Source: an uncultured bacterium
GTDB lineage: Bacteria; Krumholzibacteriota; Krumholzibacteriia; WVZY01; JAKEHA01
Direction: 5' to 3'
NCBI GenBank assembly: GCA_964621155.1
Contig: CAZULB010000001.1
Coordinates: forward strand, 10,402-74,401
DNA length: 64,000 bases
Position 1 is the first letter of the stretch, and every line of letters starts with the position of its first letter. Under the pieces are notes generated by a model. The model made no database searches, was not told the origin of the DNA, and was given only the letters and a program-made list of their open reading frames with translations. Positions 1,205 through 14,425 of this stretch are shown here, piece by piece. The position numbers and the translations under genes were made by a program.

Positions 1205-3223
1205 TTGCTGACGACCGCGCGCGCGCGATCGGCGCCGGCCGACGCCACCGTTCCGGCCATTCCCGACTCGATCCCGGTGATGCCGCCCATCATCGTGACG
1301 GCGAAGCGGCCCGATTTTCGTTCCGACATCGTGAACCGGCCGGGATTCGTCGCGTTGGTGGACATGTCGCAGCGCAGGGACCGCGTGGAGGACCTGCCCG
1401 CGATTCTTTCCCAGCTGGTGGGCGTGCGTGTTACGCAGTATGGGGGGATGGGCAGCTTTGCGACGGTGTCGATTCGCGGCTCGTCGTCGAGCCAGGTGCG
1501 CACCTTCCTCGACGGGATTCCCATCGATGATCCCTATCTGGGTATCACCAACATCGGCGATCTTCCCCTGGGCGGAGTTGACCGCGTCGAGGTCTATCGC
1601 GGGTTTTCTCCTCCCGCGCTCGGTAGTGCCGCGATGGGTGGTGCGGTGCAATTGGTCTCGCGCATGGACGGCACGCACGATGCGCTGCTCTCTGGTGTGG
1701 AGGCAAACGCGTCCGCGGGATCTTTCGAAACCCGCCGGGAAGCAATTTCGTTCTGGCTAAAACCCCGCCAATTTCGTTTCTTCGGACACGGAACCCATGA
1801 GTCGTCGGCCGGTGATTTTGAGTTCGTCGACGACAATGGAACTCGGGAGAATCCTGATGACGATCGCACCACGGCTCGGGTTAACAATGACTTCGACGCG
1901 TGGAGCGGCATGCTTCGGGGCAGCGCCGAGATGCCGGGAGTGGGAACCGTGCTCGCGGGCTACTACGACGCCGCGCGCAACAATGGTGTTCCGGGCCTCG
2001 GCTCGAATCAATCGGTCAGTGCCCGCTCTGAACGGCGCCGTCGCCTCGGCCAGGTACGGATAGAGGGTGCTCCGCGCTGCGACGACCGCCTCGCTTGGAC
2101 GGCGGCCGGTTTCTATCATCGTGCGAACGAGAAGTTCCACGACCCCGACGGTGAGATAGCGCTCACCGCGGAAGAGACAGACAACACGATCAACGCGTAC
2201 GGTGGAACGGCGCGCCTGAAGTATCTGATTCCGGGTAACCGGTTCTCTGTTGAGGCGAATTACTCTGCAACGACAGAGCAGTTCCACCCGGCAGAGACAT
2301 TGCCCGCACAAGAAAACGGCCCGGACCGCTGGCGGCGGACGGTGATGATTGCGCTCGGGGGCGACGCGTATCTCATCGGCCAGTCGTTGGTGGTCTCGGG
2401 CCTTTTTCGTTATGAGCGGCACGCCGACGAGTTCGGCGATGAATCCGATTACCCCTGGCTTCCCCCCACCGCCGAAGGACGTTTCGAGCACGAGACGACC
2501 TCGCCTGGCGCCGGCGCGCGCTGGCACGCGCGATCGTGGCTCACCCTCAAGGGCAATATCGGGCGCTACTACCGGCTTCCCACTTTTCTGGAACTGTTTG
2601 GCAACACCGGCGCGGTTACCGGAAATGCCGCTCTCGAACCCGAAGAAGGTGTCAATCGTGACGCCGGCTTCACGGTGAACGTCGCTCGCGCCGGGTTTGC
2701 GCGCTCGCTCTTCGCCGAGGTGAGCTACTTCGACAACACCGTCGACAACCTCATCCTGTTCTGGCCCAACTCGCAATGGACGACTCAGCCCAGCAATATC
2801 GGAGCCGCGCGCATTCGCGGTATCGAGAGCAGCGTAAGCGCCGCGTTGCCGTATCAATTCGATGTGAGTGCCGCGTACACGTTCATGGACGCGGAGGACA
2901 CCGGCAACCTGGCGCGATACCACGGCAAGGCTCTTCCGTCCCGCCCGCGGCACGACTTCAACGGCTCGCTGTCGTATTCGTGGCACGCGCTGCGGGCGAC
3001 GTACGAGCTGCACTACATCAGCGCCAACTATCTCGACCGTTACAACGCAATGCTGACCGACGCGCGCGATCTGCACTCGTTGATTCTGACGCTGCGCGCG
3101 CCGGTTGACGGACTCTCTCTCTCGCTCGAAGGACGCAATCTGGGCGACGTGCACACCGCAGACGTGGCGGGCTTTCCCCTCCCCGGCCGGAGCGTGTATT
3201 CGACGCTGGGATATCGGTATTAG
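1205..3223 (+). CDS. TonB-dependent outer-membrane receptor
   Basis: The plug-domain signature is present (VRVTQYGGMGSFATVSIRGSSSSQVRTFLDGIPIDDP ... VDRVEVYRG). The protein is long and beta-rich and ends in an aromatic residue (YRY). The true start is probably upstream of the TTG at 1205 (see findings). Confidence 0.8.
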   Translation: MLTTARARSAPADATVPAIPDSIPVMPPIIVTAKRPDFRSDIVNRPGFVALVDMSQRRDRVEDLPAILSQLVGVRVTQYGGMGSFATVSIRGSSSSQVRTFLDGIPIDDPYLGITNIGDLPLGGVDRVEVYRGFSPPALGSAAMGGAVQLVSRMDGTHDALLSGVEANASAGSFETRREAISFWLKPRQFRFFGHGTHESSAGDFEFVDDNGTRENPDDDRTTARVNNDFDAWSGMLRGSAEMPGVGTVLAGYYDAARNNGVPGLGSNQSVSARSERRRRLGQVRIEGAPRCDDRLAWTAAGFYHRANEKFHDPDGEIALTAEETDNTINAYGGTARLKYLIPGNRFSVEANYSATTEQFHPAETLPAQENGPDRWRRTVMIALGGDAYLIGQSLVVSGLFRYERHADEFGDESDYPWLPPTAEGRFEHETTSPGAGARWHARSWLTLKGNIGRYYRLPTFLELFGNTGAVTGNAALEPEEGVNRDAGFTVNVARAGFARSLFAEVSYFDNTVDNLILFWPNSQWTTQPSNIGAARIRGIESSVSAALPYQFDVSAAYTFMDAEDTGNLARYHGKALPSRPRHDFNGSLSYSWHALRATYELHYISANYLDRYNAMLTDARDLHSLILTLRAPVDGLSLSLEGRNLGDVHTADVAGFPLPGRSVYSTLGYRY

Positions 3224-5443: not shown

Positions 5444-8389
5444 CTACATGATCTTGAGCGAAATCATGAACTCGGATTCCACTTCGCGGCCTTCCTCTTT
5501 GGCGGCCGCTGCGCCGATGGACAGCGTGGACTCGAGCGCAGAGAAAATGACGAGACGGAAATCGATCTGTCCGCCCCAGTTGATTGCCTCGCGCCGGAAC
5601 GCGCTGTCATCCATGTTGGTGACCAGGCCGATGGTAAAGAGCGCCGGGCGCGCGTAAGTGCAGTAGAACTTCGGAACCCCCGCGCGCCGGAACCTCACCG
5701 GCGGGAGCGTCCACTCCACCATTGCCCTCGCGAAGTTGGTGCCGGAGATCGCATCGATCTCGGCGCCGGGAAACCGTTCGAAGTTGCGGTAGCGCTTCAC
5801 CTCCTGGTGGTCGACGTAGTTGTTGCCGAATCCACCGAAGTAGAAGCTGGCAAAACTGTCGTCGCGGTTGCCGCGCGAATAACCGCCCGCGGCGCGCAGC
5901 CACACCGACGAATGATCGATGGGCGTGAGGGCGCCGACGTCCACCTGCGCGGTTCCCCTACCGTAAAAGTCACGATTCACCAGATTGCCCTCAACCCCCA
6001 GCGACCACAACACGCCTTTCTCGTCGTCGACGGCGCCAATGGTGCGCTGCACGCGTTTGTAGTCGAGGCTGGCCGTGGCGGCGCCGTACTCGTTGAACGT
6101 CGCCAGCACGTTCTGGTTGTAGGGCAGTCGTTCTAGCCCGCCGTACCATGCCGCGTTCACCGTGTATTCGAGGTAGCGCGGGCGATCCGCAATGATGAAG
6201 TCGGAGCGCTCCAGCACCACACCATGGCCCTTGCGGCTCACTTTGGTGGGGCCAAAGAAATCGTAGAAGTCGGAACGATTGTACGCCGCCTTGAGCGTCC
6301 ACGGAAAATGGCGGAACACCATCTTCGCATGCCACATCTCCTTGTCGGGCGCGTCCGGCGAAACCCCGGCCACCACATCCCCACCGTGCACACCCAGCGG
6401 ATCCATGAAGTTCCAGCGCACACCAATGGTCGTGTAGGCCTTGTAATACTCCGCGACGGGGTAGATGGAAGCCGCCGTAATGCTGCGGACGTTGTGGTAC
6501 ACGCCACGATATGTGGTCAGTGAATCCAGATTCACGTCGCGTGGCGACGGAAGCTTCCACTCCCGGAGCTCGGGATAACGCGTAACAACCTCGTTACCGA
6601 GATACTGGATCGCGTTCACATCGGTCAGCGTAGTGTCGGCAATGACCGCCGGGTGAAAGCCGTCGCCCGCATACGCAAAGACAACGAGCGAGTCGCCCAT
6701 GGGAATAGGGCGGAAGAAGCCCACGTCAGTATTGGTGACGCAGTCCATGGCCGCGCGCTCGAAGTCCCACTTGAACACGTTGGACACGCCGGTCTGATAC
6801 GACGTCCCGTAGAGATATTTACCGTCTTTGGCATACACGAAGTTGGCAGGCGCCGTCCTGTCGAACTCGTAGAGCGTGCGATACGAACCTCCACCCTTGA
6901 GCAGATCGACGGTGTCGAACTCGACCAGCTTCACGTCACCGTTGATTTCGAGGATGGAAGCCGTGAGATGCTTTCCATCGGGCGCGACATCCAGATCGAA
7001 GACGTCGCGGCCATAGGTGAGGTCCATCACCGGCAGGATGCACTTCCAGGCGTTGTACGGCGATGCGATGCGAACCAGAGTCGAGAACCCGTTGTGGTGC
7101 TGCACGCCCCAGAGTGCGCTGTCGGCTGCGCTGTAAGCCAGGTCGCCGATGCGGCAGTCGGAAATGAGCCGCGTCGACTTGCGCGTCTCCAAGTCGATCG
7201 CGTTCAGGTCGCGCCAGTGCTTGCCGTTGTTGGTGGTGTAAAACAACCGGCGCTGGTTCGGGTCGAAGGCAAGAGAGCAAACGTAGTAGAGCGCGGGTGT
7301 CTTTACTTCATGAAGCGATTCCATCTCACCGGTGGTCAGGTCGACTGATGCAACGTGTGCAAAGGCACCCGGATAGTTCACCGCTACCAGGAGTCGGCCG
7401 GTCTTCGGATCCACGAAACCGCGCGACACCGAGCCCAGGCCGCGCGTTCCCACCACACGCGCATGGGTGAGCGGATACTGCGCCACGGTTTCCAGATTGC
7501 GCGCCTGCCACTCGTGCTCGAACTCGATCCAGCGTTCCCACATGTCCTCCAGCGACACGCCAAACACGCGGTGGAACTGCGACGCGTAGTACGCATCCGA
7601 GCTGTCGGTGCGATTGACCCACGCCATCACCCTTTCCGGTCCCTGCTGGGCGGCCAGATACGACATGAAACGCGTGCCGTAGAGATACGAGTTCTGGCCG
7701 ATCTGGAAATCGCTCGTCGTCCCTTCCGACTCGAGCCCGACGATGTCATAGAAATATTTTCTGTCGCGCACCATGGCACGGAACGCCATCTCGTCGTAGC
7801 CGCCGAGCGAGCGCCCGATGCCGCCGGCGAGCCACGTCTCCATGAAGCAGGCGATGCCCTCGTGGTACCAGCGCGGTGCGAAACGTCGCGGCGAGCACAG
7901 GTACGAGTAGATCATCGATTCCGGATTTTCGGAGTCGGCCAGCACCTTGCCACGGAAGAGCGACCGAAATACCCGGTCAATGTGGCTGGTCTTTTCGGAA
8001 GCGACCACGTGGAAGAGCTCGTGGCTCATGACCCAGTTGAAACGCTCGTTGGTCGGGCACGTCTCGTAGACGTATTCAAAGGGTTCGATGCCGAGCGTGA
8101 TGTAGTTGTTCGGAATCGTCGACGTTCCGGCATAGCCGTAGTCGTCGAAGTCCTGCAGCAGGATCGTGACTTCTTCGCCGGGAACGTATCCGAGCGAGCG
8201 CTCGAAGTAGCCGTACGAGTTTTCAAAACAGCGGGCGAGGTGCGGAATGATGTAGGCGTGCGCGGGATCGTAATAAACGACGCGCAGCGTCTTTGTCTGC
8301 AGGCACTGCAGATCAAGCCCGGCGCGTGACGGTACGGCACCGAGTGCAGCAATGATTGCGATCACAATGGAGACGGTGAGGGCGCGCAT
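5444..8389 (-). CDS. Large outer-membrane protein: N-terminal HExxH zincin-like domain, central TolB/WD40-like beta-propeller, C-terminal Omp85/surface-antigen-like beta-barrel
   Basis: Signal peptide MRALTVSIVIAIIAALGAVPSRA (start chosen at ATG 8389). MSHELFHVV ... HEGIACFMETW resembles HExxH...E. Propeller-like repeats (LLVAVNYPG, LFYTTNNG, LAYSAADS). C-terminus FYFGGFGNNYVDH...GGQIDF resembles the bacterial surface-antigen barrel. Confidence 0.55.
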   Translation of the reverse strand: MRALTVSIVIAIIAALGAVPSRAGLDLQCLQTKTLRVVYYDPAHAYIIPHLARCFENSYGYFERSLGYVPGEEVTILLQDFDDYGYAGTSTIPNNYITLGIEPFEYVYETCPTNERFNWVMSHELFHVVASEKTSHIDRVFRSLFRGKVLADSENPESMIYSYLCSPRRFAPRWYHEGIACFMETWLAGGIGRSLGGYDEMAFRAMVRDRKYFYDIVGLESEGTTSDFQIGQNSYLYGTRFMSYLAAQQGPERVMAWVNRTDSSDAYYASQFHRVFGVSLEDMWERWIEFEHEWQARNLETVAQYPLTHARVVGTRGLGSVSRGFVDPKTGRLLVAVNYPGAFAHVASVDLTTGEMESLHEVKTPALYYVCSLAFDPNQRRLFYTTNNGKHWRDLNAIDLETRKSTRLISDCRIGDLAYSAADSALWGVQHHNGFSTLVRIASPYNAWKCILPVMDLTYGRDVFDLDVAPDGKHLTASILEINGDVKLVEFDTVDLLKGGGSYRTLYEFDRTAPANFVYAKDGKYLYGTSYQTGVSNVFKWDFERAAMDCVTNTDVGFFRPIPMGDSLVVFAYAGDGFHPAVIADTTLTDVNAIQYLGNEVVTRYPELREWKLPSPRDVNLDSLTTYRGVYHNVRSITAASIYPVAEYYKAYTTIGVRWNFMDPLGVHGGDVVAGVSPDAPDKEMWHAKMVFRHFPWTLKAAYNRSDFYDFFGPTKVSRKGHGVVLERSDFIIADRPRYLEYTVNAAWYGGLERLPYNQNVLATFNEYGAATASLDYKRVQRTIGAVDDEKGVLWSLGVEGNLVNRDFYGRGTAQVDVGALTPIDHSSVWLRAAGGYSRGNRDDSFASFYFGGFGNNYVDHQEVKRYRNFERFPGAEIDAISGTNFARAMVEWTLPPVRFRRAGVPKFYCTYARPALFTIGLVTNMDDSAFRREAINWGGQIDFRLVIFSALESTLSIGAAAAKEEGREVESEFMISLKIM

Positions 8390-8442
8390 CTCGTTCCGCA
8401 GCAGTCTACGTGAGTCGGGTACGGACCACAAGGTGATGACCG

Positions 8443-8482
8443 CAAAAACGGGGCGCCACGTTTTGGTTTCGTGGCGCCCCGT
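8443..8482 (-). terminator. Rho-independent terminator downstream of the repeat-protein gene
   Basis: 13-bp perfect stem ACGGGGCGCCACG / CGTGGCGCCCCGT with a 9-nt loop. On the minus strand it is followed by TTTTTG. Confidence 0.55.
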
Positions 8483-8526
8483 CTGGTCATTGCGAAGAAG
8501 TCGGGACTGATGTTGAACGAATGCTG

Positions 8527-9594
8527 TTAGTTCCTGGCCGCCTTCTCCATCTCGGGAGCCTTCTCCAGCGAAGCCTGGGCGCGGTCGCCGACAAAGGCAC
8601 GCTCGAAGGCCGCGGCGCGCTCCGCTTCCGGCGCACGATCCAGGAAGGACGCACGCTCGGTCACGGTTGCATAGTTCAGGATCGCGGCGCGCTCGGCGTC
8701 CGTCGCTGCCTTTTCGAGCTTCACGCGTTCCGCTTCGGGCGCACGGGCGATGATCGAAGCGCGCTCTTCCTTGCTGGCGCGGTCGACGAACTTGGCACGC
8801 TCGGCCACGCTGGCACGCTCGACGATCGCCGCACGGGCGTCAACCGACATGCGCTGCGTCATGTTCATGCGCTCTTCGGCACTGGCACGCTGCAGGATCG
8901 AGGCACGCTCTTCGACGCTGGCCCTGGCCAGGACGGAGGCACGCTCGGTCGCGGTGGCGCGCTCGTACAGCTTGACGCGCTCGTCGGGCGTCGCACGTTC
9001 GAGCATCCTGGTGCGCTCGTCCGGAGTCGCCTGGTTGAAGATCGCGGCACGCTCGGCCACGCTCATGCGGTCGAGCGAGATGTTGGCGCGATCGATCATC
9101 TGGGCGCGTTCGGTCTCGGTGGCACGCTCGAACGCATCCGCCTCGACGCCGGCCTTCTGCAGCACTGAGGCGCGCTCCGTGATGTTCATGCGGCCGAGGA
9201 TCGACGCGCGCTCTTCGGGCGTGGAGCGAGCGAGGAGCGACGCGCGCTCATCGACGCTGGCGCGCTCGAGAATCGACGACGCCATCTGCTTGTCCATGCG
9301 GCTGTACAGATTGAGACGCTCCTGCGCCGACATGCGGCCCATGATTGCCCCGAACGTTTCGAGGCTGGCCGGATCATTGGCCAGCGCCATGAAGAACGCG
9401 TCCGGCGCGGCGGCGTTGTTGTCCGTAACCACGTCGTTCGGCGTGATCTGTTCCGAACGATACTTGTCCACCGTGCCGATGGCGCCCGATACGTCGGTGC
9501 CGGTCGGCGTGGTGTTGCGGGATTTCATGAAAACGACGGAGCCAATGACGACGACACTCAATGCAATCAAAAGACTGGTTGACCTCTTCGACAT
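8527..9594 (-). CDS. Membrane-anchored repeat protein (about 24 copies of a 12-aa xxERAxxxxRAx unit)
   Basis: N-terminal TM/signal anchor MSKRSTSLLIALSVVVIGSVVFM. The rest is degenerate tandem repeats such as VEERASILQRAS / VAERAKFVDRAS / EAERVKLEKAAT. Last gene of the sigma/anti-sigma operon. Confidence 0.55.
   Translation of the reverse strand: MSKRSTSLLIALSVVVIGSVVFMKSRNTTPTGTDVSGAIGTVDKYRSEQITPNDVVTDNNAAAPDAFFMALANDPASLETFGAIMGRMSAQERLNLYSRMDKQMASSILERASVDERASLLARSTPEERASILGRMNITERASVLQKAGVEADAFERATETERAQMIDRANISLDRMSVAERAAIFNQATPDERTRMLERATPDERVKLYERATATERASVLARASVEERASILQRASAEERMNMTQRMSVDARAAIVERASVAERAKFVDRASKEERASIIARAPEAERVKLEKAATDAERAAILNYATVTERASFLDRAPEAERAAAFERAFVGDRAQASLEKAPEMEKAARN
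8570..9320 (-). repeat. 36-bp periodic coding repeat (ERA repeats) inside CDS 8527..9594
   Basis: The 12-aa repeat is visible in the translation. The + strand ORFs 8521..9168 and 8750..9628 are antisense artefacts of this periodicity. Confidence 0.5.
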
Positions 9595-9702
9595 GACCCT
9601 TCCTCCTTGGACGGTGGGTGTGTACTGAATTGCTGTCGATCGTACTACATTCGCCCGGATGCGAAGTTGGTGGGCGACCCAAGATTTTCTTCCCGAAACA
9701 GC

Positions 9703-9725
9703 GACGCCCCCGAAGGCGGGGCGTC
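9703..9725 (-). terminator. Possible weak intrinsic terminator after the anti-sigma gene
   Basis: GC hairpin GACGCCCC...GGGGCGTC followed on the minus strand by a GCTGTTTC tract. Confidence 0.3.
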
Positions 9726-9737
9726 CCCGGGTAAGTC

Positions 9738-10508
9738 TTAGTGGCCCGCCGGGCGCCCCTCGAAGACCGGCTGCCCCGCTTGAAGTAGTTTCAGGACAAC
9801 AGCTTGCGCGGCTTCTCGGGAGCCGGAAAAGACCAGCGTAATGCCGCCTTCTCCGGTGTGCAGACCCTGCACCGAGGTCCGATTGGCGGCAAACGCGGCG
9901 GTCGCGGTTCCTTCTCTTTCGACGCGGAGAAGCTGCCAGGCGTCACCATCAAAATCGAGATGCCACTCGACGGGGACGGTCGACTGCAGCCGCAGCCGGA
10001 CCGCCAGGTTGGAGCCCTGCTCTTCGATACTGGCGCCACCCGAGACGGTGCCTTTTTCGGTTTCTACCGGGATGGAACCGAGCGTGGCGCGCTCATCGGA
10101 AACCATCGAACCGGAAATGCTGCCCGGATCGACACTGCGCGCGTTCCACATGCCGGGACGTCCCTGCTGAACGGCTATAAGAATCAGAGCGCCCGCCGCC
10201 AATCCCAGACCGAAGGTGGACCAGGGGCGCAGCGCAACCGAGAAGAATCCTTTTCGCACCGGCGCCATCTGCACCGGCCGGCGCACGCTCTCGCGTTGCA
10301 CGGCATCCAGAATGCGCGGCTCGAGTTCGGTGGGAGGCTCGGGCATGGGTTCGTGGTTCAACTTCTCGACCACGCGCGCCAACGACTCATAATAGGAGCG
10401 CGCCGTGGGATCAGCGGTGAGCACCTTCTCCAGCTCGGCGCGTTCGCGCGGCGATGCGACGCCGTCGATGGCCAGATTCATGAGTTCTATGGTTTTGGGC
10501 TCGATCAT
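9738..10508 (-). CDS. Anti-sigma factor (single-pass membrane protein)
   Basis: N-terminal anti-sigma domain (ELMNLAIDGVASPRERAELEKVL...YYESL). One TM (GLGLAAGALILIAVQ). Its start overlaps the ECF sigma stop by 4 nt (ATGA). Confidence 0.65.
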   Translation of the reverse strand: MIEPKTIELMNLAIDGVASPRERAELEKVLTADPTARSYYESLARVVEKLNHEPMPEPPTELEPRILDAVQRESVRRPVQMAPVRKGFFSVALRPWSTFGLGLAAGALILIAVQQGRPGMWNARSVDPGSISGSMVSDERATLGSIPVETEKGTVSGGASIEEQGSNLAVRLRLQSTVPVEWHLDFDGDAWQLLRVEREGTATAAFAANRTSVQGLHTGEGGITLVFSGSREAAQAVVLKLLQAGQPVFEGRPAGH

Positions 10509-11062
10509 TCCGTGATCCCCCTTGCGGTCAGGATGTCCTTGAGCTGCTGACGGGCAGTAAACAGGCGGGACTTCACGGTCTTTTCCGGGACACCGAGCAC
10601 GTCGGCCATCTCCTGGTAGGAGAAATCGTGGTAGTGCTTGAGCACGATCACCATGCGATAGTCCGGTTTCAGCATTTCGATGGCCTCGACGATCTCCTCG
10701 CTCAGTGCCGCGGCGCTGTGCGTCGCTTCCTGCGTGGGCGCCAGCACGACACTCTCCCCGCTCTGATACTCCTCGTTGCGTTTGGCCCGGTTCGTAAAGT
10801 TGATCGATTCATTGATGGTGATGCGATAAATCCAACTGAAGAACTCATGCCTGTCATCGTACGAATCGAGCTTCTGGTACACCTTCACGAACACGCCCTG
10901 CACGATGTCCATGGCGTCGTCCCGGTCGCGGGTCATGCGCAGCGCCAGGTGGTAGAGAGGCTTCTCGTACTTGCGCACGAGGGCATCAAAGGCGCGCGAA
11001 TCACCCGCGAGGCATTGCCGGACCAGGATGGCGTCGGCGTTCGGGTCTTTCAGTGAAGACAT
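10505..11062 (-). CDS. ECF (sigma-70 family, group 4) RNA polymerase sigma factor
   Basis: Region 2 (DAMDIVQGVFVKVYQKLDSYDDRHEFFSWIYRITIN) and region 4 (LSYQEMADVLGVPEKTVKSRLFTARQQL) motifs. Confidence 0.85.
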   Translation of the reverse strand: MSSLKDPNADAILVRQCLAGDSRAFDALVRKYEKPLYHLALRMTRDRDDAMDIVQGVFVKVYQKLDSYDDRHEFFSWIYRITINESINFTNRAKRNEEYQSGESVVLAPTQEATHSAAALSEEIVEAIEMLKPDYRMVIVLKHYHDFSYQEMADVLGVPEKTVKSRLFTARQQLKDILTARGITE

Positions 11063-11129
11063 ACAGTCGGGGTGGCCGAAAAGTTGGCAAGAATATGCCG
11101 ATCGGCCTGCGGAAGCGTTGATGGCACTG

Positions 11130-11447
11130 CTACTTGATAATGAACACCTGGCTGAAACCGGCGATGGAGAAGAGCTCCTTGATGTGGCGGCTCATGTGCG
11201 TCAGGACGAGGCTCTGCCCCTTTTCCGCGAGTCGGCGCTGAACGCCGAGAAGAACACCCAGGCAGGCGCTCGAGATGTAGTCCACGTTCTCGAAGTCGAG
11301 CTCGCACGTGGCCTCCACGGGCTTCAACTCTTCACGCAGTCGGTCCGCCTGAGCGGCGTCCAACCTTCCCACCAGAATGAATTCCCCGTTGGGGCCGCGA
11401 CGGACATCGAGCATGAATTGCCTTTCGCCGAACAAGGAGATTACCAC
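11130..11447 (-). CDS. STAS-domain protein (anti-sigma factor antagonist-like)
   Basis: LVGRLDAAQADRLREELKP...LDFENVDYISSACLGVLLGVQRRLAEKGQSLVL is typical of SpoIIAA/STAS. An alternative start ATG at 11414 would give 94 aa. Confidence 0.6.
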   Translation of the reverse strand: MVISLFGERQFMLDVRRGPNGEFILVGRLDAAQADRLREELKPVEATCELDFENVDYISSACLGVLLGVQRRLAEKGQSLVLTHMSRHIKELFSIAGFSQVFIIK

Positions 11448-11526
11448 ATCAGCGGAAGGCGCCGTATCTGATTCTGTGCAAGAGTCTTAGCGCGGCGTGC
11501 CCGGGCGAGCGAGAAGCGGCGAGTTG

Positions 11527-11955
11527 TCAGTCGTCGTTGCGAACCGATCCGCGCATGCGCTTGGTGGCAGAACGGCGGCGTTTGGCATCGACGCGGTTGG
11601 CCTTGGCGGCGCGCGAAACGCGGGTCATGCGGCGGTGTTTGGGAGGAGTGGCGGCGGTGCGGATCATTTCGACCAGACGTTCGATGGCGTCGGCACGGTT
11701 GCGCTCCTGGGTGCGAAAGCGGCGCGCCGTAATAATAAGGACGCCCTCGCGCGTGAGACGGGAGCCAACGCGCGAGACGAGTCGGGCCCGCACATCATCG
11801 GGGAGCGATCGTGAATGAGCGGCGTGGAACCGAAGCTGGGCGGTCGTCGCCACTTTGTTCACGTTCTGACCGCCCGGTCCCGACGAGCGCACGAAAGTAA
11901 TGTCGAGCTCGGACTCGTCGATCGAGAGCGTGGGGGTGATGTGGATCCGGGCCAC
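11527..11955 (-). CDS. arfB: Alternative ribosome-rescue factor ArfB (peptidyl-tRNA hydrolase, GGQ family)
   Basis: 142 aa. GGQ motif in SSGPGGQNVNKV with a basic C-terminal tail, as in ArfB/YaeJ. Confidence 0.85.
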   Translation of the reverse strand: MARIHITPTLSIDESELDITFVRSSGPGGQNVNKVATTAQLRFHAAHSRSLPDDVRARLVSRVGSRLTREGVLIITARRFRTQERNRADAIERLVEMIRTAATPPKHRRMTRVSRAAKANRVDAKRRRSATKRMRGSVRNDD

Positions 11956-11958
11956 GGT

Positions 11959-14325
11959 CTACTTGAGCAACACCATCTTGCGCGACAGCGTGGTCAGTGC
12001 CGTGTCCAGCCGGTACAGATAAACTCCGCTCGCCAGCTGCTGGCCGCGATCATCACGTCCATCGAACGTGACACGGTGCGGACCTTTGGCCTCGACGGCG
12101 TCCACCAGCGTGCGCACCAGATGACCCGCCGTGTCGAAAACGCGAATGCGTACCGGTCCCGCCAGCCCCAGTGAATACTCGATGGTGGTTTCCGGATTGA
12201 ACGGGTTCGGGTGATTTGCGTGCAGCTCGGTGAGTGCGGGCAAATCGCCCGCGCCGGTAGCCACGGGCTTGAGCCAGATGCCGTCGGTGAGGCCAACGCG
12301 ACGCTGGGTGGCGCCGTAGGTAATGTTTGTGATGAGTGTGTCCGGCACGTAGCCGGGCGCCGAAAAGATGATGGTCACGTCCTCGTTGGTGCCGCGGGTG
12401 GGGCCGTCGTCATACAGAAAATAGAAGCGGCCATCGTCCTGGACGTGCTGCACAAAACCGCGTTCGATGGAGCGCGCGGTAAAGTTGGAAATGATGTGCT
12501 GACTGTACTTGTCGCGCACTTCGCCGTTGATCTCGCCGGTGGCGTAGGGCCCACTGAGCACCGTGTTCAACGCGGCACGCCCATCGACCGACTTTTCGAA
12601 GTATTCTTCCCACGTCTTCCTGAAGAGAGCAATCTTGTCGAGCTGCGCCTGCAAAGGCACGGTCCCCTGCTTGATGAGGAAGATGAAACCCTGGCGCAGC
12701 ACATGCTCTTCGTCGGCCACCACGGGCGTGCGTGGGCCTTCCGAAGCGATGATATCCTCTACCGTCACGGGGACAAAGGTACCGGTGGCAACCGAACCCA
12801 TGAGCGGCGTCCCCACGGAACGAGCGCTCACGGTATTGTTGGACGCGCTGGATATGAAGAAGAAGTCCTTCACTTCATTGGGCGTACGCATGCCAAAGAG
12901 GTACTCGTCGATCTCCGAGAAGTAGTCGACGTTGGTGGGGCAGCTGTAGTTGCTGCCACCCGTGCTCACCCAGTCACCGCCTTCGAGAGAGCTGTGATCG
13001 AGATCTGCGTAGTAACTCCAGTGCGCGTCGGAGCGGCCCAGGATCAGATTGCTATGGCCGACTCCGTACGTGACGAAAGCACCCCAGCGGTGTCCCGACT
13101 CCTGCCCCATGATGGTGAGGAAGCTGTTGCCCTTGCCGAAGGTGCGCGCAGCGGGGTCGGCTGAGGCCCATACGTCGAGATTGTTCATGTTGCATCGGCT
13201 CTCGAGCACGCCCGACGACCCGTACGATGCACTGCCGTCGAAGATGTTGAGCCCGATGCCGGTCACATCGTTACTGATGTTGACCTCGTTCGCGAACCCG
13301 GCCATGGTCTGGGTGAAGTTCGTGAAGAAAACGAGCTGAAAGAACTCATCAGCGAACTGGGAATAGAAACGCTGGAACAGCGCCGCCTCGTCCACGAGCG
13401 GATTGGCGTAGCTGTAGTACTGCTCGAACACGGCCGCGCCGGCAGCACTCGTGTGCGGGAGCCCTGAAGAGTAGCTGATCTCCTCGAGCGTCGGGTTGTT
13501 GACGCTGGGGTTGTATCCCGTGAGGCTTCCGATATTGGAGCCGATTCCGTTATAGGTAATGGTGAAATCCCCGTTCGGGAACATTACCAGTTGAAACGTG
13601 TTGCTGGCCGGTTGGCCGTACTCGAACACGTTGATATACGTCACCGTGTACTTGGTGGCTTCACTGCGCACGCGCACATCGCCGTTCGCGGTTTCATCAA
13701 GGTCCAGGTAATAGGGCGCAATCTTCGGGGTCGTGCTGAGAAAGTCGTTCGGATCGAAAAACGCGCCGTTAATGGGAGCGCCGAATGAGACCGCGCCGTT
13801 TCCACTCACATACATCTGCGTGTACGTTGTTCCGGCGTAGGGAAACGCAAACGGAAGGTTGACCAGCACCGCGCCGTCGTCGCCGGGGGCGAGCAACGTC
13901 CCCAATGTGTTGTCGTAGCTGAACGTCTGCGACGTGATGGTGTAGGCGGTTCCGCTCCTGGTGTACTTGTGGGTCTGGTGGTCGACCACGAACGGGTTGG
14001 TGCCGCTCAGCGTGAGCGTGCCGTCGTCTTCGATGACCCAGACGTTGTCATAGACGTAGTCGAGCCCGGTGGTGACGGCACCGGCTTTATGCGCTATCTG
14101 CTTCTGTTTGGCGGCGTGCAGCAGCCGCGCCCCCCGGTTTTCAGTTTCGTTTCCCTTGTAGGTGCCACAGTCAAAGACGGTCTCTCCCAGCGCGGTATAA
14201 GTCCGTTGGGGCTGGGCGACCTTCTGCGGAACGCCGGAACGCGGCCGGGCCTGCGCGCTTGAAACGAGGCAAAGGCTTGCAAGGAAACCAAAAAGGAGCC
14301 GTTTGTGCGCTGACGATCCCGCCAT
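11959..14325 (-). CDS. Secreted protein with T9SS-type C-terminal sorting domain
   Basis: Signal peptide MAGSSAHKRLLFGFLASLCLVSSAQA (start ATG 14325, GGAGG RBS). C-terminus NPFNPETTIEYSL...IRVFDTAGHLVRTLVD...GVYLYRLD...RKMVLLK. Confidence 0.7.
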   Translation of the reverse strand: MAGSSAHKRLLFGFLASLCLVSSAQARPRSGVPQKVAQPQRTYTALGETVFDCGTYKGNETENRGARLLHAAKQKQIAHKAGAVTTGLDYVYDNVWVIEDDGTLTLSGTNPFVVDHQTHKYTRSGTAYTITSQTFSYDNTLGTLLAPGDDGAVLVNLPFAFPYAGTTYTQMYVSGNGAVSFGAPINGAFFDPNDFLSTTPKIAPYYLDLDETANGDVRVRSEATKYTVTYINVFEYGQPASNTFQLVMFPNGDFTITYNGIGSNIGSLTGYNPSVNNPTLEEISYSSGLPHTSAAGAAVFEQYYSYANPLVDEAALFQRFYSQFADEFFQLVFFTNFTQTMAGFANEVNISNDVTGIGLNIFDGSASYGSSGVLESRCNMNNLDVWASADPAARTFGKGNSFLTIMGQESGHRWGAFVTYGVGHSNLILGRSDAHWSYYADLDHSSLEGGDWVSTGGSNYSCPTNVDYFSEIDEYLFGMRTPNEVKDFFFISSASNNTVSARSVGTPLMGSVATGTFVPVTVEDIIASEGPRTPVVADEEHVLRQGFIFLIKQGTVPLQAQLDKIALFRKTWEEYFEKSVDGRAALNTVLSGPYATGEINGEVRDKYSQHIISNFTARSIERGFVQHVQDDGRFYFLYDDGPTRGTNEDVTIIFSAPGYVPDTLITNITYGATQRRVGLTDGIWLKPVATGAGDLPALTELHANHPNPFNPETTIEYSLGLAGPVRIRVFDTAGHLVRTLVDAVEAKGPHRVTFDGRDDRGQQLASGVYLYRLDTALTTLSRKMVLLK

Positions 14326-14425
14326 GGATGCGTCCTCCGAAGGACGAGAATGTGGAAAGCACCGGTCGGAACAGAGTGGGGTGTGCTCGCTATATTTTCG
14401 CACTCGGGCAGGCTATGCGCAATGA

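Follow-up and report, generated by a model that had tools for sequence, protein, structure and literature searches.

The stretch analysed here (the window) is 64,000 nt of contig CAZULB010000001.1 (assembly GCA_964621155.1, positions 10,402 to 74,401) from an uncultured bacterium of the Krumholzibacteriota. Its minus strand carries genes for a sigma factor of extracytoplasmic function (ECF) and an anti-sigma factor and, after a gap of 143 nt, a gene for a 355-aa protein with one transmembrane (TM) helix and helical repeats, named REP in this work. On balance, the comparative evidence favours REP being a detached anti-sigma ectodomain, which is induced by the sigma factor and modulates proteolysis of the PrsW type, and which serves as a periplasmic regulatory or sensor module of the ECF pathway. 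Together with the sigma factor, the anti-sigma factor, an outer-membrane protease (DOWN995) and PrsW, it belongs to a widespread module that probably signals the state of the envelope by proteolysis. The three consecutive minus-strand genes and the 4-nt overlap of the first two (10505-10508), as described in the original prediction for this locus, agree with the list of open reading frames (ORFs; Table 1).

This reading leans on gene fusions, conserved linkage and a shared promoter motif, which together support, across the genomes compared, a functional tie of REP to the sigma/anti-sigma pair. Relatives were found by back-translation of the conserved N-terminal motif of REP, which gave 58 loci (soil and sediment metagenomes, and metagenome-assembled genomes, MAGs, of Krumholzibacteriia and Latescibacterota). 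An exhaustive HMMER search returned 90 representatives of 1.84 billion with E<1e-3, the family being rare in protein space. When all of REP served as query, its low-complexity repeats filled the word index (8000 candidates) and 1 hit resulted; the N-terminal 111 aa gave 4 fragments. At least six of the 90 representatives (P0009, P0010, P0051, P0060, P0064 and P0069) join an anti-sigma domain, one TM helix, the juxtamembrane motif of REP and MgtE_N repeats in a single chain. In both P0009 and P0010, residues 1-115 can be aligned with residues 1-113 of the anti-sigma factor of the window (BLASTP E=2e-12 and 5e-9, respectively). Their loci read (kinase), STAS, sigma, fusion and a ~990-aa protein, followed by PrsW in the P0010 locus, and have no separate REP gene. 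Because motif and repeats are recurrently fused to the anti-sigma domain, the repeats can be regarded as part of the signalling protein itself, and these architectures place both elements within the signalling path.

The gene order STAS, sigma, anti-sigma, REP is kept in every locus with enough flanking sequence, down to 37% sigma identity, and in most loci REP is followed by DOWN995 (~985 aa) and then directly by PrsW; the window has both. The order kinase, STAS, sigma, anti-sigma, REP-like gene, DOWN995, PrsW occurs in a complete genome of Eisenbacteria and in two MAGs, of which one is labelled Chlorobi and the other Acidobacteria. The module order was seen in Krumholzibacteria and Latescibacteria loci besides these single Eisenbacteria, Chlorobi-labelled and Acidobacteria-labelled assemblies, Bacteroidota-labelled homologues standing outside the gene-order comparison. 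The original prediction had drawn the unit as three genes only, which proved too narrow, as the conserved unit also has the STAS gene upstream and the 981-aa protease-like barrel protein and PrsW downstream. Co-occurrence of the repeat protein with ECF pairs in related genomes, which it had suggested as a check, is borne out by the linkage in every locus with flank; with the shared promoter motif and the natural fusions, it makes the functional tie of REP to the pair much stronger.

The motif CCAACTT-N14-16-TGTA has exactly two matches in the 64-kb window (0.00 expected), one in front of the sigma gene (P_sig) and the other in front of REP (P_rep). Where the upstream regions are available, a relaxed form of it precedes sigma in 37/37 loci and REP in 62/62, and the 37/37 pairing includes Chlorobi-like, Eisenbacteria and Acidobacteria-labelled genomes. 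In L045 and L046, both promoters share the -35 variant CGAACTT. No copy of CCAACTT...TGTA was found before DOWN995 or before the kinase/STAS genes in the loci examined. An AAC-containing -35 element and autoregulation are hallmarks of ECF promoters; since these features are typical and the motif is shared, we infer REP to be a direct member of the sigma regulon on its own transcription unit. As P_rep shares the -35/-10 motif of P_sig and REP ends at its own terminator, the level of REP would follow sigma activity. A scanner for sigma-70 promoters and terminators returned nothing relevant; the candidate promoters are of ECF type and the 9-nt loop of the REP terminator exceeds its 8-nt limit.

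The strong intrinsic terminator claimed 3' of REP is present; its stem is rich in GC and has 14 bp, 11 of them in the conserved GGGGCGCCACG core, and its free energy is −36.8 kcal/mol (z=-7.1). A second hairpin, directly after the anti-sigma stop codon, has a free energy of −25 kcal/mol (z=-2.0); in L001 and L003 the same hairpin is followed by TTTTT/TTTTTT, and a GC-rich segment with a T-run occurs in several other loci. This hairpin is a possible, perhaps leaky, terminator dividing sigma/anti-sigma from REP. These elements bear on a simpler arrangement, in which a single operon holds all three genes and REP, expressed constitutively with the other two, binds or partners the periplasmic domain of the anti-sigma factor, like RseB. 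The genes share a strand and lie close together, the moderate stability and weak T-tract of the post-anti-sigma hairpin make read-through plausible, and the fusions are in keeping with a partner role. Against this arrangement stand the promoter motif identical to that of P_sig in the anti-sigma/REP spacer of all 62 loci, the preservation of the ~140-nt spacer everywhere, the proper hairpin and T-run in the closest relatives, and the predicted alpha-solenoid architecture of REP, in which no RseB-like fold was found. This arrangement is accordingly judged quite improbable, and REP is most likely a separate, sigma-dependent, monocistronic unit, as far as the conserved signals tell. The description of the locus as an operon terminating in REP holds for the genes and the terminator; the single operon is argued against by the post-anti-sigma hairpin, the conserved P_rep and the Shine-Dalgarno (SD) sequence of REP itself, which is replaced by GGAGG-type variants in a few loci. 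A promoter of its own combined with a lack of conserved linkage to sigma/anti-sigma pairs had been named beforehand as speaking against a partnership; a promoter-like motif of its own is indeed seen, and the linkage is instead conserved in every locus with flank.

In relatives, only 3-9 nt separate the TGTA of P_sig from the start codon of sigma, whose mRNA may accordingly have no leader or a very short one. In the window (11051-11065), TGTA overlaps the annotated sigma ATG (TGTATG), and the ATG/GTG of relatives lies 8-9 nt downstream at codon 4, which is CTG here. The sigma start in this genome is uncertain or non-canonical, and the true start may be codon 4 (CTG in the window, GTG or ATG in relatives).

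The repeat character of REP is evident from its lag-12 identity of 0.344 as compared to 0.099±0.018 in shuffled sequences (z=13.8). Lags of 24, 36 and 48 show up as harmonics, and a half-period is seen at 6. The 12-residue period of the original prediction is therefore highly significant, while its count of ~24 copies is to be lowered to ~22 units (residues 85-349). An AlphaFold2 (AF2) model built on a 12-sequence alignment (mean predicted local distance difference test, pLDDT, of 70) consists of the TM helix, a linker and 24 short helices of 8-13 residues, each repeat unit being one short helix and a turn, in agreement with the alpha-helical character expected earlier. The repeat, which had not been recognised at that time, matches Pfam MgtE_N (PF03448) with 2.1e-20 and 73.6 bits against a cut-off of 25.9 bits, in 4 stretches. 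On the same family, seven relatives, stand-alone or fused, score 38-74 bits, and the giant protein P0006 reaches 219 bits. Foldseek returned the MgtE N-domains 2oux and 8gpv (also 2yvy) as best PDB matches of the model, with a probability of 0.98-1.0 at E=0.1 and a TM-score of 0.2-0.3, followed by leucine-rich-repeat variant and FliG. The PDB sequence search gave no match for REP, and nothing informative for the anti-sigma factor and DOWN995.

The cytoplasmic N domain of MgtE has the helix-turn repeat fold that is predicted for REP and is the best match of REP in both Pfam and structure. It differs in being cytoplasmic and in having ~10 helices, behind which come CBS domains and a pore of 5 TM helices; REP lacks these parts, and its repeats are predicted to face the periplasm. 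The test for an MgtE channel in REP was negative, with 16.3 bits on TIGR00400 against a cut-off of 232.75 and no CBS or MgtE Pfam hits. A cytoplasmic Mg2+-sensing role like that of MgtE was rejected on the predicted topology. One source labels the REP orthologue P0001 as "Mg/Co/Ni transporter MgtE", which is an over-annotation, since there is no channel domain. Two giant proteins, P0002 (5016 aa) and P0006 (1881 aa; Pfam 1.4e-65, 6 stretches), carry many MgtE_N-like units with no TM helix or motif; their context is a different one, and such proteins probably include eukaryotic ones. Residues 177-260 of REP weakly resemble Pfam DUF3106 (E=0.098), as do residues 269-325 of P0009 (2.6e-4), both below threshold. 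DUF3106 is a proteobacterial family of helical repeats, whose genes adjoin ECF sigma genes.

The most constant part of REP is a 19-residue stretch, GAIGTVDKYRSEQITPxDV, for which the family pattern is G-[AT]-I-G-x-[VA]-x-[KR]-[YH]-x3-Q-[ILM]-x3-D-V. Among 55 distinct sequences, the motif begins 9-15 residues past the TM helix; its G, I, Q, D and V never vary, and 54/55 sequences keep the second G. The linker containing it (residues 27-64) has a pLDDT <50 in the AF2 model. In contrast to this constancy, orthologues of REP range from 344 to 807 aa, and from about 20 to about 60 repeat units, and two lineages (L045, L062) have swapped the ER-type repeats for unrelated ones, with TM helix and motif kept. 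The conserved element of REP is, from these alignments, the juxtamembrane segment and not the repeats. The variant in L045 (2136-3619; also in L046) has TM helix and motif with repeats of KGSNSTKGMNDA-type low complexity, and in L045 a two-gene pair resembling HigB/HigA toxin-antitoxin, by eye only, is inserted between this variant and DOWN995. The REP ORFs of L014, L025 and L035 are short (243, 273 and 168 aa, respectively), which likely reflects frameshifts or assembly errors in the repeats; in L014 and L025 the repeat-coding sequence continues past the stop codon.

The side of the membrane on which the repeats lie, left to topology prediction by the original analysis, is predicted to be the periplasm. 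REP has a single N-terminal hydrophobic helix (mean Kyte-Doolittle hydropathy 2.3-2.4), and since the anti-sigma domain must be cytoplasmic and the fusions have one TM helix, the repeats of the fusions would be outside the membrane. In stand-alone REPs, the net charge flanking the TM helix is +1.8 on the N-terminal and −0.2 on the C-terminal side, and the N-flank is the more positive one in 57/59 family members. A periplasmic location of the REP repeats is inferable from the fusions together with this positive-inside bias.

Periplasmic MgtE_N domains have precedent in MotE/FlbB/FlgY (COG3334), which have an N-terminal TM helix or signal peptide and an ARM-like right-handed superhelix of the MgtE_N type (PMC13023049). 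That REP is itself a flagellar E-ring protein of this kind, a periplasmic MgtE_N scaffold around the MS-ring, is barely credible, although the Pfam domain, the N-terminal TM helix and the predicted periplasmic location are shared. The E-ring proteins are of 170-265 aa, with a long dimeric coiled-coil and one small four-helix head, and their genes lie by fliJ/fliK (PMC13023049), whereas REP and its orthologues have 22-60 tandem repeat helices, no coiled-coil and an extra invariant motif, and were never found next to flagellar genes in 60+ loci, where sigma/anti-sigma and protease genes are the neighbours. The AF2 model of REP contains no long helix. The E-ring identity was rejected on architecture and gene context.

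A further explanation is that REP is purely an output of the regulon, i.e. a sigma-induced envelope protein (spacer or tether, cation buffer, protective scaffold) without control over the sigma factor. P_rep is the only sigma-type promoter in 64 kb besides that of the sigma gene, repeat number and type vary as for a bulk or structural element, and charged residues abound in the solenoid (R 14%, E 13%), the MgtE N-domain being part of a Mg2+-sensing region. The recurrent fusion of motif and repeats to the anti-sigma domain, the look of a recognition site given by an invariant motif at a fixed distance from the membrane, and the constant position of REP between the anti-sigma gene and DOWN995-PrsW across phyla argue against it. 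A pure effector role is hence considered unlikely, and the detached ectodomain remains the preferred reading.

The anti-sigma factor has a putative N-terminal anti-sigma domain, followed by one TM helix at about residues 96-113. It matches NCBIfam antisigma NF052375 weakly (2e-11, 44 bits against a cut-off of 100 bits), and zf-HC2 was below threshold (E=0.04, 14.5 bits against 22.2 bits). The HxxxCxxC zinc motif is absent, as the residues aligned with it (LTADPTARSYY) include neither His nor Cys. The periplasmic part of ~120 aa (residues 114-256 region; 9738-10170, minus strand) has no family match and is probably beta-rich; it is ~40 residues shorter in the sub-clade of L022, L023, L025, L051-L053, L055 and L057. 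A juxtamembrane segment, DPxxVSG[ST][ML], is conserved in the 27 aligned orthologues. Its VSG[ST][ML] faintly resembles VSGAIG of REP, and a protease site common to both proteins is a weak lead from this likeness.

The sigma factor contains regions 2 and 4 (Sigma70_r2 3.4e-16, Sigma70_r4_2 1.2e-17) and scores 109 bits on TIGR02937 against a cut-off of 42.9 bits; at 185 aa and without region 3 it conforms to ECF group 4 (sigma2 and sigma4, no region 3, ~170-200 aa). It reaches no named equivalog cut-off, the best being SigY (120/194 bits), followed by SigW (112/209) and RpoE (103/236). The clade may already carry a group number in the ECF classification. The STAS gene lies upstream of sigma in all loci with flank and is the first gene of the module in the window; its product scores 50.8 bits on TIGR00377, just below the cut-off of 53.45 bits. 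In most relatives, a kinase gene of the RsbW-like HATPase_c_2 type lies just 5' of STAS; it is seen in some Krumholzibacteria loci (L048 4196-4600, with a 4-nt overlap of kinase and STAS; L025 5774-6355) and also in L062-L064. There is no kinase gene in the window, where arfB and STAS are spaced by only 79 nt (11448-11526), which makes the STAS gene an orphan.

DOWN995 has >3,659 homologues, which are called "hypothetical protein" by every source that names them. Its HExxH and a downstream E are invariant in the alignment, and the AF2 model (pLDDT 79.7, predicted TM-score 0.79) shows a signal peptide, an alpha/beta peptidase-like domain and a C-terminal barrel of long strands; matches to Omp85_2 and Peptidase_MA_2 are weak and limited to some family members. 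The catalytic motifs of the PrsW family are EExxK/R and HxxxN/D. The PrsW protein of the window matches PF13367 with 1.8e-20 and 73.8 bits (cut-off 23.5 bits), and EExxK/HxxxN are present in its translation as VEETFK and HSLFN. PrsW was detected in 16 loci and follows DOWN995 in 15 of them, all but L044. In Bacillus subtilis, PrsW is the site-1 protease of the anti-sigma factor RsiW (PMC5358783).

Computation shows the gene identities, the paired promoter motif, the synteny, the fusions, the constancy of the motif and the variability of the repeats; the dependence of P_rep on sigma, the topology, any physical contact, and an action of PrsW on this anti-sigma factor or on REP are conclusions drawn from these. 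On the preferred reading, the single-pass anti-sigma factor would sequester the sigma factor, and an envelope cue would lead to cleavage of the anti-sigma factor by the PrsW-type protease and to the release of sigma, a cleavage possibly helped or gated by the outer-membrane HExxH/TolB-propeller/barrel protein. Released sigma would then drive its own promoter and P_rep. The juxtamembrane motif may be the element recognised by the proteolytic machinery or by the anti-sigma ectodomain. In the fused form, motif and repeats would gate the access of the protease to the anti-sigma factor; in the split form, REP induced by sigma would act back on the pathway, in the simplest case by damping anti-sigma cleavage as a shield or competing pseudo-substrate, the damping sign of this feedback being a guess. 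An extended version, in which DOWN995 monitors the outer membrane or periplasm and acts on the REP solenoid extending from the inner membrane, so that REP is lost or remodelled, the motif (on REP or on the fused anti-sigma factor) is exposed to PrsW and the anti-sigma factor destroyed, with a partner switch of the STAS/RsbW type adding a cytoplasmic input, is a rather unlikely trans-envelope device of FCB-type diderm bacteria.

Several points weigh against the detached-ectodomain reading. All of the evidence is comparative and comes from uncultured organisms. L001, L002, L047 and L048 are the closest relatives for which downstream sequence exists, and in them DOWN995-PrsW does not come directly 3' of REP, so that this part of the module can be unlinked; the module is rearranged within the closest clade and intact in the window. 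The AF2 model of REP is of medium confidence, and the Foldseek E-values behind its fold are weak. The likeness of the VSG segments of the two proteins is short and could be due to chance. The anti-sigma factor of this locus retains its own periplasmic domain, and REP may thus not be needed for sensing. Finally, the overlap of TGTA with the annotated ATG and the CTG at codon 4 make autoregulated expression in this genome not straightforward.

As compared to the sigmaW/RsiW/PrsW/RasP system of B. subtilis, for which the promoter consensus is TGAAAC-N16-CGTA, the locus has a similar ECF promoter (AAC-containing -35, xGTA -10). Both systems also have an ECF sigma factor, a single-pass anti-sigma factor (here a putative one) and a protease of the PrsW family (PMC5358783; PF13367 here). 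Unlike the B. subtilis system, the present one belongs to diderm bacteria of the FCB type, has PrsW genetically linked to the sigma locus, and includes STAS, REP, the HExxH/propeller/barrel protein and, where present, an RsbW-like kinase, besides the missing HxxxCxxC and the low score of sigma on the SigW equivalog. Periplasmic proteins tied to envelope-stress regulators, namely CpxP for CpxA and RseB for RseA, modulate the sensor or the anti-sigma factor. REP shares this logic with no relationship in sequence or fold, being membrane-anchored, built of repeats and fused in some lineages. The FecI/FecR/FecA system consists of a sigma factor, an anti-sigma factor and an outer-membrane barrel, with a sigma-dependent promoter downstream of the anti-sigma gene. 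The gene order of sigma, anti-sigma and outer-membrane barrel is similar here, which makes a trans-envelope relay conceivable; unlike in the Fec system, there is no FecR domain and no TonB-dependent plug or barrel, and the barrel carries protease- and TolB-like domains with no sigma-type promoter before it. No paper was found in the literature searched that links ECF or anti-sigma factors with MgtE_N, with PrsW plus STAS, or with DUF3106, nor one that links ECF systems with a set of linked PrsW, STAS and outer-membrane protease.

Pairs of ECF sigma and anti-sigma factors are the third major mode of bacterial signal transduction, with signal and sensing domain obscure for most groups. The locus points to a conserved module of six to seven genes, which joins such a pair, PrsW (a protease understood to date in Firmicutes alone), a protease/propeller/barrel protein of the outer membrane and an ectodomain of MgtE_N helices with an invariant motif. 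On the rather unlikely trans-envelope version, REP would be the first anti-sigma ectodomain expressed as a separate, sigma-induced gene. The split and fused forms are a natural experiment on the gating of proteolysis by anti-sigma ectodomains. The paired promoters offer a ready reporter, and five or six genes could rebuild the pathway in E. coli.

The reading frame of REP has to be considered as well, as ORFs of 215 and 292 aa lie antisense to it, and the GC content of third codon positions (GC3) is 0.83 for both the REP frame and its antisense mirror frame, so that GC3 alone cannot separate the two. An earlier judgement that the plus-strand ORFs are the artefacts is upheld by the conservation of SD sequence, ATG start codon, TM helix and 19-residue motif, the start codon, SD sequence, TM helix and motif being kept in >55 sequences. 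REP and its orthologue in L001 (89% identical) differ at 29/20/78 sites by codon position, mainly the third, with 59 synonymous as compared to 39 non-synonymous codon changes in the minus-strand frame. With the MgtE_N match above threshold and homologues across phyla, the converse view, in which the plus strand holds the real gene and REP is no more than an artefact of translating low-complexity sequence, has next to no probability and is refuted by conservation in the aligned sequences.

Table 1. Features of the ECF sigma/anti-sigma/REP locus and its flanks (positions in the window)
Feature	Position	Strand	Basis or remark
STAS-domain protein (anti-sigma-antagonist-like), 105 aa	11130..11447	-	Pfam STAS_2 4e-16, STAS 5.5e-11
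P_sig, candidate promoter, motif CCAACTT-N15-TGTA	11062..11087	-	directly before the annotated start codon of sigma, which it overlaps
ECF (group 4) sigma-70 factor, 185 aa	10505..11062	-	Pfam and NCBIfam
Single-pass anti-sigma factor, 256 aa	9738..10508	-	4-nt overlap with sigma; 27-orthologue alignment
Hairpin GACGCCCC / GCCTTCG / GGGGCGTC, weak T-tract	9703..9725	-	just after the anti-sigma stop codon
P_rep, candidate promoter, CCAACTT-N14/15-TGTA copy	9646..9670	-	51 nt upstream of the REP start codon
REP Shine-Dalgarno AAGGAGG, N7 before ATG	9602..9608	-	kept in almost every locus
REP, 355-aa type-II (N-in) membrane protein, predicted periplasmic MgtE_N-like alpha-solenoid	8527..9594	-	
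REP signal-anchor TM helix, residues 3-26	9517..9588	-	AF2 helix
Invariant juxtamembrane motif GAIGTVDKYRSEQITPNDV, residues 37-55	9430..9486	-	within predicted disordered segment
~22 tandem 12-residue units, consensus x-R-A-s-x-x-E-R-A-x-x-hydrophobic	8548..9342	-	periodicity and AF2
REP intrinsic terminator GGGGCGCCACG / 9-nt loop / CGTGGCGCCCC, then TTTTT	8443..8483	-	
TAGACT box (TAGACT/TACACT in relatives)	8403..8408	-	between terminator and DOWN995; recurs in most loci
DOWN995, 981-aa exported protein	5444..8389	-	signal peptide, HExxH (MA-type) metallopeptidase-like domain, TolB-like six-bladed propeller, C-terminal beta-barrel (14 long strands predicted)
PrsW-family intramembrane metalloprotease, 334 aa	4434..5438	-	starts 5 nt after DOWN995

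The stem of the REP terminator, GGGRCGCCACGG...CCGTGGCGYCCC, is conserved across loci with REPs of only ~40% identity, and includes a compensatory G:C to A:T change. This conservation exceeds the need of a plain terminator, and the region may double as promoter or operator of DOWN995-PrsW, for which the TAGACT box is tentatively a candidate -10 element. An Rfam scan of 8300-11600 gave no credible RNA family. Where DOWN995-PrsW does not adjoin REP, other genes come next, for example, in L001 and L048, an ORF starting MAKV..YDDPV..GYPKSY. Among the genes near the module in the window are a TonB-dependent receptor at 1205-3223 (plus strand), arfB (ribosome rescue, 2.5e-53) at 11527-11955 (minus strand) and, at 11959-14403 (minus strand), a gene for an 814-aa protein with a C-terminal sorting domain of the type IX secretion system (T9SS). 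In many Krumholzibacteria and Latescibacteria loci, arfB and the T9SS-sorted protein keep their place upstream of the module.

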